Shown: positions 33,771 to 57,035 of the stretch, in pieces
Position numbering within the stretch: position 1 is the first letter of the stretch
Layout: the number at the start of each line of letters is the position of its first letter
Origin: an uncultured Candidatus Rokubacteria bacterium
GTDB taxonomy: Bacteria > Methylomirabilota > Methylomirabilia > Rokubacteriales > CSP1-6
Reading direction: 5' to 3'
DNA: 64,000 bases
Assembly: GCA_963707305.1 (NCBI GenBank)
Contig: CAVPPZ010000012.1
Location: forward strand, 378,370-442,369
The notes under the pieces: generated by a model
The model's input: only the letters and a program-made list of their open reading frames with translations
What the model was told of the DNA's origin: nothing
The model's database searches: none
Translations under genes and position numbers: made by a program

Positions 33771-35016
33771 GTGATCAGACGGATTCTCGCATCGTCCATG
33801 GCCATCCTGATGACGGTCGCCGGCGCCCCGGCCTGGGCCGCGGACTGTGGCGACAAGGCGGGTGCGGGCGGCACGCGGGTCGCCTGCGCCTGCGGTGACA
33901 CGGTCATCACGAATGCCACGCTGAAGAGCGGCGATCCCGTGGTCAACGCGGTGTGCGCCGGGGTCGGGCTCAGCATCGGGGCCAACGACATCACCCTGAA
34001 CTGCAACGGGCGCGAAATCAGCGGCGACCCGGACGAGACCGGGATCCTGCTCGTCGACCGTACCGGGGTCACCGTGCGCACCTGCCGGATCAACGGCTTC
34101 TTCCATGGCATTCGGCTCTTCTCGAGCAGCGGCAACACGTTGCTCTCCAACACGATCACCCCCTTCGTCTTCGGGATCACTCTCGAGGTGGACAGCGACG
34201 ACAACCTCGTCAAGTCCAACCGCGTGGTGGCGCCCGGATTGGACGCCATCAACCTCGGATCCGCGAGCGGGAATCGGATCGTGAGCAACATCCTCGACGG
34301 CGCCGGCAGCGGCGGAGACGGGATCGACCTCGACGGCCTCGCGACCGGGAACACGGTGAAGGGCAACCAGGTCACGGGCTTCCTTGGCACGCGGGATCGA
34401 GCTGGACTTTGGGGGAGGCAACGTGGTCACCGAGAACGTTCCAGTGGCAATGGCATCGGGATCCGCGTTTCAACACTTGACGCCAACACCATCGAGCGCA
34501 ACACGACGGACAACAACGAATCCGAGGGTATCGAGGTCTTTGGTAACGGCCACACGATTGACAGGAACCGCGCCAGACGGAACGGCTTCAACGGCATCAC
34601 GGTGTCAGGGAACGGCAACACCGTCACGCGCAACACCACGGACTCCAACTCGGGGGCCGGGGATCGCCGTCGACGGTGACGACAATACTGTTGACCAGAA
34701 CCATGGGGAGGAGAACGGCTTCAGCGGCCTCGAGGTCGTCTTCGGGACCGGCAACCTCATCATGCGCAACACCTTCGACCGCAATTTTGAGGACGGTATC
34801 CACGTCTCCGCTGATGGCGGCACCATCGACGGGAATCGTGGCCGGAATAACGCCGATGATGGCCTCGAGGTCTCAGGGGCCGGCATCACCGTCTCGAACA
34901 ACACCTTTGACAGCAACGCCGACTGGGGGATTTGCGTCGTCATCGGCAACACGGACGGCGGAGGCAATCGCGCGCAGGGGAACGGCGGCGGCCAGACGAC
35001 CTTCGACTGCCTCTGA
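33771..35016 (+). CDS. secreted right-handed parallel beta-helix repeat protein (NosD/CASH-like), frame broken three times
   Basis: Signal peptide MIRRILASSMAILMTVAGAPAWA. About 22-aa repeats such as GNTVKGNQVTG, GNGHTIDRNRARRNGFNGITVSGNGNTVTRNT, GLEVSGAGITVSNNTFDSN. Breaks ~34385, ~34440, ~34660. Confidence 0.7.
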
Positions 35017-54115: not shown

Positions 54116-54130
54116 TCGGGTTTGTTGAGA

Positions 54131-54580
54131 ATGATTCCTAAGAAGCTCGCGCCCGCGGAGACGCTGCGCGCGCGCGGGCTGCGGCTCACCGAGCCGCGCC
54201 GGGTCATCCTCGAGGCGGTGCGCGCCACCGACGCGCACCCTTCGGCGTTCATGGTCTACCGTCGCGTGCGCCGCCGGCTCCCGCGCGTCAGCCTCGCCAC
54301 CGTCTACCGCAACCTCCGCCGGCTCGCCGCGGAGGGCTTCCTGCACGAGCGCAGCGGCGCCGACGGATTGCGGTTCGACGGCAACACCGGCCGCCACGAC
54401 CACTTCACGTGTCTGGCCTGCCGGCGCATCTTCGACGTGCCCCCCGCGAGCCACGCGGGCGCGCGGCGGCGCGTCGCGGCGCGCACGGGCTTCGAGGTGC
54501 TCGATCACCGCGTCGAATTCTATGGCGTCTGCGCCGCGTGTCGCGGCCGCCGGATCCGTCGCGCCCCACGAACAGTCTGA
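54131..54580 (+). CDS. Fur-family transcriptional regulator (PerR-like by context)
   Basis: ..[14 protein letters not shown].., ..[14 protein letters not shown].., C-terminal CAAC. A TTG alternative start lies at 54122. Confidence 0.8.
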
Positions 54581-54595
54581 GAAGGAGGAGAGCAC

Positions 54596-55045
54596 ATGGC
54601 AGGGAAGAGCCTCAAGGGCACGAAGAGCCTCGACAACCTCAAGGATGCCTTCGCGGGCGAGTCGCAGGCGAACCGGCGCTATCTCTATTTCGCGCGGATC
54701 GCGGACATCGAGGGCTTCCCGGACATCGCGGGCCTCTTCAAGGACACCGCGGACGCGGAGACGGGCCACGCGTTCGGCCACCTCGACTTCCTGAAGCAGA
54801 TCGGCGACCCGGCGACGGGCGAGGCGATCGGCAAGACCGAGCTGAACCTCAAGGCCGCCGTGGCCGGCGAGACGTACGAGTACACCCAGATGTACCCGGG
54901 CATGGCGAAGACGGCGCGGGAGGAAGGCTTCCCGGAGCTCGCCGAGTGGTTCGAGACGCTCGCCAAGGCGGAGAAGTCGCACGCCGGCCGCTTCAACAAG
55001 GGCCTCACGCAGGTCGCGGGCAAGGAGCCGGCCGAAGCGATCTGA
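54596..55045 (+). CDS. rubrerythrin-family diiron protein without a rubredoxin domain
   Basis: [16 protein letters not shown].., ..ETGHAFGH.., ..AVAGETYEY.., ..[12 protein letters not shown] (E and E-x-x-H ligand pattern); GGAGGAG RBS. Confidence 0.85.
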
Positions 55046-55116
55046 TCGCAGCAGACAAGGTCGAGCCGTGATGGGGCCGGACGGGCGAGACCGTCCGGCC
55101 CCTCACCGGTGAGTCC

Positions 55117-56457
55117 ATGAATACCTTCGACATCCGCAAGCCCGAGTTCTGGGACCGGAACGACGTCGATGGCGAGCTGAGGCGCGTCTACGACATCTGT
55201 AACGGGTGCCGGCGCTGCCTGCCGCTGTGTCCGTCGTTCAAGGTCATGTTCGACCGCATCGACGCCGACGTCGTCGACGGCGACGTCGAGAAGCTGCCGG
55301 CGAGCGAGGTCAAGGAAGTCGTCGACCTCTGCTACCAGTGCAAGCTCTGCTACAACCACTGCCCGTACACGCCGCCGCACCGGTGGGCGGTGGACTTCCC
55401 GCGGCTCATGCTGCGCTCGCGCGCGTCGGAGGCGAAGGCGAGTGGCGTGAGCCTGCAGGATCGCATGCTCGGCAACACCGATCTCGTCGGCACGATCGGC
55501 AGCCTCACCGCGCCGCTGTCGAACTGGATGAACGAGTTCAGCGCGCACCGCGCGCTGCTCCAGGCCGTGGCCGGCATTCACAAGGACCGCGAGCTCCCGC
55601 GCTTCCATCGCGAGACCTTCAGTAAGTGGTTCGCAGAGAGCCAGCGCCGAGGGGCGGGGCGGCGAGGGGTCACCGCCTTGCGAGCGGGACGGGCGAAGCC
55701 CACTCCCGACCGCAGACGCGGCGCCCCACGCAGCCCGCCGCCTCGGCGCGTGGCTCTCTTCGCGACGTGCACGGTCGAGTACAACGATCCCGCCATCGGG
55801 CGCGCGGCCGTCGGCGTGCTCGAGAAGAACGGGATCGACGTGAGCCTGCCCCAGCAGCGCTGTTGCGGGATGCCGTACCTCGACGGCGGGGCCATCGACG
55901 AGTGCCGGGCGCTCATGCGCGACAACGTGAAGACGCTGGCGGCCGCGGTGCGCGAGGGGTGCGAGATCGTGTCGCCGGGGCCCACGTGCAGCTACATGCT
56001 CAAGCAGGAATATCCCTGGCTCGACGGCTCGGAGGACGCGAAGCTGGTCGCGAGCCACACCAAGGACCTGTTCGAGTACCTCGCGGGTCTGCACGCGGCC
56101 GGCGCCCTCGACACCCGGTTCCCGCGCGCGCTGGGGAACGTCACGTACCACGTGCCGTGCCATCTCCGCGCGCAGAACATCGGCACGAAGTCGGCCGACA
56201 TCCTGCAACTGGTCCAGGGGACGAAGGTCGACGTGGTGGAGCGATGCTCCGCGGTCGACGGCACCTGGGGCTTCAAGAAGGAGTATTTCGAGTTGTCGAT
56301 GAAGGTCGCGAAGCCACTGTTCGACGCGGTCCGGCAGGGCGGGCCGGTCGCGGCCACCGATTGTCCCCTCGCCGCGTTGCAGATCGGGCAGGGAACGGGG
56401 CAGAAGGCGCGTCATCCGATCCAGCTCCTCGCGCAGGCGTACGGGCTCGAGCCGTGA
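55117..56457 (+). CDS. (Fe-S)-binding protein, GlpC / heterodisulfide-reductase-related (2x4Fe-4S plus CCG domains)
   Basis: CNGCRRCLPLCP and CYQCKLCYNHCP clusters; CCG-type motifs ..TCTVEYN..CCGMP.. and ..YHVPCH... Intact ORF carrying an Arg-rich insert at aa ~174-214. Confidence 0.8.
   Translation: MNTFDIRKPEFWDRNDVDGELRRVYDICNGCRRCLPLCPSFKVMFDRIDADVVDGDVEKLPASEVKEVVDLCYQCKLCYNHCPYTPPHRWAVDFPRLMLRSRASEAKASGVSLQDRMLGNTDLVGTIGSLTAPLSNWMNEFSAHRALLQAVAGIHKDRELPRFHRETFSKWFAESQRRGAGRRGVTALRAGRAKPTPDRRRGAPRSPPPRRVALFATCTVEYNDPAIGRAAVGVLEKNGIDVSLPQQRCCGMPYLDGGAIDECRALMRDNVKTLAAAVREGCEIVSPGPTCSYMLKQEYPWLDGSEDAKLVASHTKDLFEYLAGLHAAGALDTRFPRALGNVTYHVPCHLRAQNIGTKSADILQLVQGTKVDVVERCSAVDGTWGFKKEYFELSMKVAKPLFDAVRQGGPVAATDCPLAALQIGQGTGQKARHPIQLLAQAYGLEP
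55635..55759. repeat. ~125-bp imperfect nested palindrome related to the 1401-1552 repeat, inside the Fe-S gene
   Basis: Outer arms agagagccagcgccgagg / cctcggcgcgtggctctct; centre cgggacgggc-gaa-gcccactcccgac. Shares gggcgaa, gcccactcccgac and cgcag with the first repeat. Confidence 0.75.
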
Positions 56458-57035
56458 AGCCGGTCACGCACGACGAGCTGCTGAACCTCCACGAGTACGA
56501 GAAGGTCCGCGAGGCGCGACGGCAGGCGATCATCGCGCTCAAGCGCCGGCGGCGCGTGCAGGTCGGGCGCTACCTCTCGTTCGTCTTCGAGAACCACGCC
56601 ACCGCGTGGTTTCAGATCCAGGAGATGATCCGCGCGGAGCGTATCGTCGACGACGCCAAGGTCGCCGACGAGCTCAGCGTGTACAACGATCTCCTGCCCG
56701 GTCCCGGCGAGCTGGCCGCCACCATGTTCATCGAGATCGGCGACCCGGCGGCCATCAAGCCCGTGCTCGACGCGCTGCTCGGCATCGACACCCGCGACTA
56801 CGTGCGCATGGAGGTCGGCTCGCACGTGATCGTCGGCCGCTTCGAGAGCGGCCACTCCGACGAGGAGCTCGGCAAGCTCAGCGCGGTGCACTTCGTCCGG
56901 TTCGCGCTGCCGCCGGCGGCGCGCGCCGCCTTCGCGACGTCGGAGGTCGTGCTCGTGGTGGACCATCCCAACGAGCGCGCGCGCACGGTCCTGTCCCCGG
57001 AGACGAGAGGGAGCCTGGCCGAGGACCTCGCGTGA
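56454..57035 (+). CDS. DUF3501 family protein
   Basis: GTGA overlap with the Fe-S gene; ..LSFVFENHATAWFQIQEMIRAERI..; typical rubrerythrin/Fe-S/DUF3501 gene neighbourhood. Confidence 0.7.
   Translation: MKPVTHDELLNLHEYEKVREARRQAIIALKRRRRVQVGRYLSFVFENHATAWFQIQEMIRAERIVDDAKVADELSVYNDLLPGPGELAATMFIEIGDPAAIKPVLDALLGIDTRDYVRMEVGSHVIVGRFESGHSDEELGKLSAVHFVRFALPPAARAAFATSEVVLVVDHPNERARTVLSPETRGSLAEDLA

Follow-up and report, generated by a model that had tools for sequence, protein, structure and literature searches.

In-frame palindromic repeats are established for Rickettsia, whose palindromic elements (RPE-1 to RPE-10; Ogata et al. 2000, Science 290:347; 2002, Genome Res 12:808) are reviewed in PMC10969869. 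Similarly, repetitive extragenic palindromes (REP) tagged by GTAG/CGTC have intragenic members in several species, where the in-frame copies encode 20-80 extra residues (PMC3733652, Di Nocera, De Gregorio & Rocco 2013, BMC Genomics 14:522), and in-frame fusions are also made by miniature inverted-repeat transposable elements (MITE) such as ERIC, BOX, Correia, Nezha and others (PMC10969869). The case presented here comes from an uncultured Candidatus Rokubacteria bacterium. A stretch of 64,000 nucleotides (nt) of its genome G000 (C12:378370-442369; hereafter the window, to which all positions without a contig label refer) contains the gene of a GlpC-like Fe-S oxidoreductase (55117-56457, + strand), and within this gene, at 55635-55759, lies an imperfect palindrome of 125 nt that is in frame and folds as a single long hairpin. 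We regard this palindrome, with a probability of about 0.8, as a degenerate copy of a dispersed palindromic family that was inserted into the interdomain linker of the GlpC-like protein. The insert adds a new example to the known phenomenon of in-frame palindromic repeats, and the initial annotation of the locus, which saw in it an unusual route to new linker sequence, overstated the point, as such repeats are documented (PMC10969869, PMC3733652).

The palindromic nature that had been ascribed to the segment is borne out. Its arms are 92% complementary at 55632-55643/55751-55762 and 81% at 55644-55669/55724-55749. The RNA fold of 55635-55759 reaches -103.5 kcal/mol, compared with -75.8 +/- 4.2 in dinucleotide shuffles (z -6.6; 0/200 as good). 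A far better palindrome (z -15.2) is found at 1401-1552 of the same window (+ strand), where arms of 45 nt with perfect complementarity enclose a conserved asymmetric core of ~85 nt in a total length of 152 nt. This reference copy was the seed of an nhmmer search over G000 (5.6 Mb, 70% GC, 29 contigs, completeness rated 68%), iterated once, by which the family is defined and which recovers 26-27 loci.

That the centre of the linker palindrome matches the core of the 1401-1552 element had been noticed from the letters alone, and the match, short as it is, has statistical support. Local alignment of the insert with the family consensus gives CGGGA-CGGGCGAA-GCCCACTCCCGAC, with 25/28 positions identical and a score of 37, which exceeds all 9000 controls: dinucleotide shuffles have a mean of 16 +/- 2.2 and a maximum of 27 (0/3000 reach 37), and random genomic 125-mers a maximum of 31 (0/6000). 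Of the 21 occurrences of the 13-mer GCCCACTCCCGAC in the 5.6-Mb genome, 20 belong to family copies and the remaining one is that of the insert. The matching segment forms the apex hairpin of the insert (55685-55710, + strand; CGGGACGGGCGAAGCCCACTCCCGAC; read as GRAKPTPD) and is placed exactly in the middle of the palindrome, which is also its place in the family copies. A profile hidden Markov model of the family core gives the insert 7.8 bits, which is rank 4 of 20,001 windows.

A near relative provides further evidence. P0001 (P0001-P0004 are orthologous proteins from relatives) is an 88%-identical orthologue from a Joint Genome Institute (JGI) metagenome (sample 3300078620) and the closest orthologue with sequence on record. 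At the position of the insert it reads ...ATLAVGSGRMPTPDTAGGA..., where G000 has ...TALRAGRAKPTPDRRRG..., and its peptide TLAVGSGRMPTPDTAGG agrees in 15/17 residues with the family consensus translated in frame +0 (TLAVGSGRMPTPDIAGR). This agreement indicates a bona fide family copy in the linker of P0001, which would be undegraded and stand at the same site, in the same orientation and in the same frame as the insert of G000.

The linker itself is bounded by residues that are invariant among 47 aligned homologues (W171 F172 ... A213 F215 T217 C218). Between these flanks, 118 distinct Rokubacteria linkers (WF...VALF) range from 10 to 73 residues, with 39 in G000, and more than half of them (68/118) measure 10-18 residues, e.g. 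DRRKPARFEPQAR. The initial annotation had predicted a gap of ~40 residues in orthologues exactly at 55635-55759. Such a gap is present, but the net gain is smaller, ~29 residues: compared with the shortest relatives, the extra DNA amounts to ~87 nt or 29 codons, and the right outer arm (55741-55759, + strand; CCT CGG CGC GTG GCT CTC T) encodes P-R-R-V-A-L-(F) in codons that are native and conserved and with which the CCG domain begins (strand 210-214), so that these last 19 nt are not inserted DNA. Indeed, RRVALF or RKVALF is also found in orthologues without any insert. The lineage-specific expansion proper spans 55633-55740 (+ strand; residues 173-208, AESQRR...RSPP), exceeds the 10-residue linker of the closest short-linker relative by ~87 nt and is predicted to form a disordered loop. 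Its left outer arm (55635-55652, + strand; AGAGAGCCAGCGCCGAGG), read as (A)ESQRR, repeats the native RRVALF codons in inverted form. The proposal that a repeat landed in a permissive linker thus stands as far as the P0001 copy, the gap in orthologues and a second in-frame copy (see below) are concerned, but not for the outer right arm, which is host sequence. Neither outcome that the initial annotation held to be fatal to it was observed, in that most orthologues have no linker of similar length and the similarity of the core is statistically supported.

At the protein level, the gene is an intact open reading frame (ORF) of 446 residues, uninterrupted as had been stated, in which residues 174-214 read ESQRR...RRVAL. 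A ferredoxin part and a helical region are N-terminal and an HdrB/LutA-like CCG module is C-terminal. According to Pfam, the 2x[4Fe-4S] ferredoxin part (Fer4 dicluster) occupies residues 27-84 and the CCG domain residues 212-296; the helical region that follows the ferredoxin part comprises residues 94-183. The insert therefore lies between the two domains, as had been claimed, directly N-terminal of the CCG domain and behind the helical region. An AlphaFold2 run on 47 sequences (mean predicted local distance difference test, pLDDT, 71; predicted template-modelling score, pTM, 0.72) places a helix at 168-183, coil at 184-209 and a strand at 210-214, with pLDDT below 50 for residues 182-205 and ten-residue block values of 83 / 40 / 43 / 57 / 85 across the insert. 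The suggested structural check thus predicts a disordered loop (coil 184-209, pLDDT ~40), a coil between two confidently predicted elements. Foldseek relates the C-terminal half to LutA (TM-target 0.78) and HdrB (5odc_B, 8rwn_B) and the whole chain, loosely, to EtfD; a sequence search of the PDB with the protein gave no match, the likeness to LutA and HdrB having come from the fold search. These matches make the linker the place where an HdrC-like module is joined to an HdrB-like one, the two being separate subunits in heterodisulfide reductase (Hdr), and this may plausibly explain why the linker tolerates insertions.

A second family copy is carried in frame by another gene. It lies at C18:186028-186138 of G000 (88.9 bits, opposite orientation) inside the gene of an ABC-F ATPase (C18:184355-186520), between the second ABC domain (ABC_tran) and the C-terminal coiled coil (ABC_tran_CTD, PF16326), and reads ...PAMSGVGIRPLQTADVRV..., which is the consensus in frame -2. 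Twelve ABC-F orthologues show a clean gap of ~30-40 residues at the element site; about 40-55 residues are added by the copy. As 4/6 reading frames of the core are open, in-frame survival is easy. Two other genes are touched by the family at their ends. At C7:58241-58350 a copy stands at the expected stop codon of an adenosylhomocysteinase gene (frame C7:57793-59334), and the stop-to-stop frame leads from the AhcY C-terminus (...YIGVHEGRPVQAGALPVLV) through the element into a gene of the phosphoenolpyruvate (PEP) mutase family with no stop between. At C11:66776-67519 (minus strand), a truncated-haemoglobin-like ORF extends at its 3' end into a copy at C11:66808-66896, read in frame -2 (PPPAMSGVGIRPLPTADV).

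Taken as a degenerate family copy, the linker palindrome would have the following history. Its source would be a lineage-specific, non-autonomous palindromic family of ~27 copies, moved by some presumed enzyme or mechanism. In the ancestor of G000 and P0001, one copy would have entered the junction of the ferredoxin/helical half and the HdrB-like CCG half, a site that is hypervariable across Rokubacteria (10-73 residues), and its frame-keeping length would have left the ORF intact. The insert is probably translated and tolerated, and would be read as a disordered loop that is first Gly/Arg-rich (from the G-rich arm) and then Pro/Arg-rich (from the C-rich arm).

Several observations weigh against this history. 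The similarity of the insert to the family is limited to ~26 nt at the apex, and the insert is missed by nhmmer when the whole genome is searched at E<=10; because of this failure and of the low profile score we consider the insert a degenerate copy rather than a regular one. The family copy of P0001 is known from its protein alone. In the congeneric sister species G001 and G002, the linkers have 40-42 residues at the same site, with sequences largely different from that of G000, and these may reflect several independent insertions or a rapid turnover just as well as one old event. The gene of G001, moreover, is split over two contigs, and its linker was rebuilt from contig ends overlapping by 25 nt. 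Finally, a search of public runs returned none that holds the exact genome (best share of words 0.19). On the other side, contigs of ~94%-identical relatives from the public runs X1 and X6 track the gene to 55634 and then continue into a similar G-rich left arm before breaking at the palindrome, which suggests, as independent support, that the insert sequence is real. One metatranscriptome contig, from a relative with <90% identity, spans 55750-55842, its upstream part being unlike.

The family from which the insert would derive has an unusual architecture. Its aligned copies share a core of ~85 nt with fixed asymmetric internal loops (GGGGGTGTGACGCGGACATTAGCGGTCGGGAGTGGGCGAATGCCCACTCCCGACATAGCAGGCCGCGGAACACCCCC), and their outer arms vary from copy to copy, with near-perfect self-complementarity inside each copy, a G-rich left arm and a C-rich right arm; the full palindromes measure 135-258 nt, their ends having been set by arm-to-arm alignment because minimum free energy gave spurious pairing out to the ends of the folded segments in this GC-rich DNA. 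The stems co-vary strongly: at least two Watson-Crick types occur in 26/39 consensus pairs, and all four in one inner-stem pair, and G-U outnumbers A-C (26 vs 5). Most copies lie within ~100 nt 3' of gene ends and several between convergent genes (ORF calls based on GC content at third codon positions, GC3), and the palindrome at C25:40030 extends from one stop codon to the other. Among 183 species of the order, a 22-mer of the core is found in G000 alone, plus one match with 2 mismatches; the core was not found in viral contigs, and a copy of a related subfamily stands at a contig end of G002 (G002:C535). An Rfam scan of the window returned two tRNAs only, the palindromic family not being a described RNA.

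Like the GTAG/CGTC REPs, the family prefers sites 3' of ORFs and between convergent ORFs and has occasional in-frame intragenic copies, and G-T pairing in the stems of both suggests transcription (PMC3733652). By contrast, REP units measure 20-40 nt and carry the tag GTAG or CGTC, whereas the elements studied here are 135-258 nt long and have GTAAG(CG) in 8/26 copies. Nor was a Y1 transposase of the REP-associated tyrosine transposase (RAYT) type (PF01797) found in the six-frame translation of the G000 assembly, which is rated 68% complete; the control search was positive in 6/14 control genomes. Membership among REPs or REPtrons was accordingly rejected on size, tag and RAYT. The GTAAG(CG) motif, also present as (A)GTAAG(CG), stands 0-8 nt outside the left palindrome end (e.g. 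C12:447818+, C7:58350+, C25:199112-, C11:31503-) and is rare otherwise, with 216 occurrences of GTAAG on the + strand of the 5.6-Mb genome; GACTAGTA is found at the right end of two family copies. In the GlpC-like gene, a GTAAG pentamer occurs at 55622-55626 (+ strand), 8 nt left of the palindrome, where it belongs to the codons S-K of FSKWF and where coincidence is possible. It also opens the linker (AGT AAG CGG = S-K-R) in G001 and in L044 (L-numbers denote loci of Rokubacteria relatives), the AGT codon being rare in such a GC3-rich genome. The motif may be a target, an element end or a coincidence.

Empty sites give some insight into how the palindromes arise. At C25:40030-40163 and C6:84934-85040 the whole palindrome, arms included, is absent in G001 (loci L232 and L228), where the flanks abut with 4 and 12 nt between them. 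At both places the arms appear to have arrived with the element or to have been made at insertion. A general model in which the core was inserted into the apex of a pre-existing hairpin is unsupported, as G001 has neither arms nor core at these two intergenic loci. Both loci, the two that were examined in this respect, have CTAG on either side of the palindrome in G000; G001 has one CTAG at C25, which is the overlapping stop of two convergent genes, and none at C6:84934. The pattern at C25 looks like a 4-bp target duplication. In being small non-autonomous repeats with inverted symmetry the elements resemble MITEs, and the CTAG pairs at two loci, with a single CTAG at one empty site, may be a further likeness. 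They differ, however, in forming one long hairpin instead of terminal inverted repeats around a unique centre and in having arms that differ between copies, and no partner insertion sequence was found in a search that covered PF01797; that the family consists of MITEs is unproven. At the 1401-1552 site, G001 (C35 ~33821-33866) has only 44 nt and no long hairpin, and G002 (C120, locus L211 ~1970-2240) carries another palindrome, ~170 nt long and with a core of its own (GCAATCCGAACGGCAAGCACGGATTGC), so that one intergenic spot holds different palindromes in the sister species G000 and G002. Arm homology between these two palindromes was not significant (189/3000 shuffles as high).

The arms of the linker palindrome are anchored on host codons. 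The joined linker of G001 is likewise a palindrome, with perfect arms of 42 nt (CAGCGCGACGCGCCG.../...CGGCGCGTCGCGCTG), in frame and anchored on RRVAL. The two species use different synonymous codons here, GTG GCT CTC in G000 with the left arm AGAGAGCCA, and GTC GCG CTG in G001 with the left arm CAGCGCGAC, and in both the left arm mirrors the codons of its own species at 3/3 synonymous sites. Arm-to-arm copying of some kind must thus have taken place at the linker after the species diverged, for which template switching at the hairpin, gene conversion between the arms, or re-formation of the palindrome are candidates; template switching or conversion between the arms would keep them identical or make them so anew. 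In template switching at an imperfect palindrome, one arm serves as template for the other, which is rewritten in complementary form. Such quasi-palindrome mutagenesis (the Ripley model) has reportedly been studied in E. coli by Lovett and colleagues. It fits the mirroring of synonymous codons seen in G000 and in G001, although it is a mutational mechanism and not an element family, and its action at the linker is suggested by sequence patterns.

Arms without a core are known as well. P0003 (from JGI sample 3300056388) and P0004, proteins of 429 residues, have an arm-like RRGGGG...PPPPRR lacking the core, and the linkers of two close relatives, L044 (10 residues) and L042 (15 residues), form short hairpins on the RRVAL anchor, again with no core, that of L042 being perfect over 20 bp. 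For the linker, in which L044, L042 and P0003 have arms but no core, it is possible that a core was inserted into a pre-existing hairpin: either an existing hairpin received the core at its apex (core of ~85 nt, compared with a net excess over L044 of 87 nt), or cores were deleted centrally in the short-linker lineages. A tentative extension of these observations, which we consider rather doubtful, is that the family is a hitherto undescribed form of self-extending palindrome, in which an asymmetric core of ~85 nt is kept by compensatory changes, perfect locus-specific arms are produced by fold-back or template-switch copying, and host codons are copied in inverted form where the element lies in a gene (RRVALF -> AESQRR). 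If this were true, the sequence of a new protein segment would be tied to synonymous sites of a conserved segment, and linkers like the HdrC/HdrB-like junction would be recurrent, possibly targeted landing sites (GTAAGCG or CTAG).

Alternatively, the hairpin could be preserved by selection because it serves a function at this site, with the peptide as a by-product. As an mRNA structure, for instance, it could slow ribosomes between the two protein halves and so time Fe-S cluster insertion or folding, or it could be a DNA/RNA element acting on the downstream DUF3501/cytochrome c genes. In keeping with this, the palindrome (z -6.6 to -8.4) is much better kept than its sequence similarity to the family suggests, the arms have changed in step where G000 and G001 differ in synonymous codons, and the stems of the family have far more G-U than A-C, as expected of a transcribed hairpin. 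Across the phylum, expanded linkers are also more prone to structure (14-23% with z<-3) than control segments from the same genes (0%), the extremes of this survey being G000 (z -8.4) and L042 (z -7.2), and with L044 and L042 even linkers of 10 and 15 residues form hairpins on the RRVAL anchor. Most orthologues, however, have 13-residue linkers that form no hairpin (median z ~-0.4), most long linkers are not strong palindromes, and in the linker of G002 palindromy is largely gone (-41 kcal/mol). The co-variation of the arms is equally explained by mutation, i.e. template switching at quasi-palindromes, and sequence inspection found no T-run or other terminator feature 3' of the hairpin. A functional hairpin therefore seems unlikely to us as the reason for the insert.

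Still less probable, and disfavoured, is a purely local origin that involves no mobile element, in which the RRVALF codons were duplicated in inverted form and the linker, GC-rich and of low complexity, grew by slippage, the likeness at the apex being a coincidence or convergence on the stable GCGAAGC mini-hairpin. It is demonstrable that host codons are duplicated in inverted form in the outer arms, other genera have linkers expanded by tandem or slippage-type repeats (39 nt in tandem in L018; ASAAGVAPARVPAA units up to 3-4 times), and the insert scores only 7.8 bits against the profile; but outside family copies the 13-mer GCCCACTCCCGAC occurs in the insert alone, the alignment score lies above every control, the apex is centred in the palindrome exactly as in family copies, and P0001 has 15/17 residues of the translated consensus at the very site. 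Least credible of all is the reading of the gene as a pseudogene, or of the insert as a palindromic mis-join made in assembly, for although palindromes break or confuse assemblies, the G001 contigs end inside both the GlpC-like and the ABC-F linker and none of the public runs searched holds G000, the ORF is intact with a GC3 of 0.92 and all invariant Cys and CCG residues kept, the operon Fur-rubrerythrin-GlpC-like-DUF3501 is kept in relatives, and independent data sets (P0001; the X1/X6 contigs) have homologous inserts at the site.

Other genera have repeats of their own in the linker. A hairpin unit GCGGGCGTGGCGNNAGCCCGGGTGCCCGC, encoding (D)RASAAGVAPARVPAA, is present 1-4 times in the GlpC-like linker and elsewhere in these genomes (loci L003, L004, L018, L019, L071, L090, L142 and L180), and in G022 a 39-nt tandem array (GQTGARASAAGVA repeated) stands in the linker at a contig end. 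As to the identity of the protein, the NCBIfam GlpC model NF008369 is narrowly passed (287.2 bits vs a cut-off of 278), and TIGR03379 (GlpC) is failed (181.8 bits vs 279.9). Because of this failure, and because the neighbouring genes are Fur, rubrerythrin and DUF3501 and not glpA/glpB, we call the predicted product GlpC-like rather than GlpC. The gene order Fur - rubrerythrin - GlpC-like - DUF3501 (54122-57035) is common to P0002 and P0003, where a cytochrome c gene follows, and this neighbourhood suggests an oxidative-stress or electron-transfer module rather than a glycerol-3-phosphate dehydrogenase.

Among the described systems, the insert of G000 agrees in class with the RPEs: it belongs to a dispersed family, is in frame in an intact conserved gene with a gap in orthologues, and occupies a linker that is predicted to be compatible with the fold. 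Both are dispersed palindromic repeats of ~100-150 bp that occur in frame in unrelated intact genes and also between genes, and both add peptide at fold-compatible positions, in the Rokubacteria case by prediction. The hosts differ, being a reduced intracellular genome for the RPEs and a free-living, 70%-GC soil genome here. The Rokubacteria family also has only 2 clear in-frame copies among ~27 and a conserved asymmetric core set between outer arms that are perfect and specific to each locus, with host coding sequence as an outer arm in the linker. The comparison is one of class, and a sequence relationship to RPEs is not expected.

The insert extends in-frame 'protein-coding palindromes' to the Rokubacteria, a widespread uncultured high-GC soil phylum. 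It also indicates that the HdrC-like/HdrB-like junction of GlpC-type Fe-S proteins takes from 10 to >70 residues, which is useful for domain parsing and protein engineering. Such palindromes break short-read metagenome-assembled genomes inside genes, as in G001, which is split in both affected genes, and since these contig breaks are caused by the palindromes, truncated gene calls at these sites are artefacts. Most worth following are the coupling between arms and codons and the unusual architecture of the family: with a left arm that is the reverse complement of conserved codons, the linker is a concrete case in which the maintenance of a palindrome at the DNA level dictates new amino-acid sequence.

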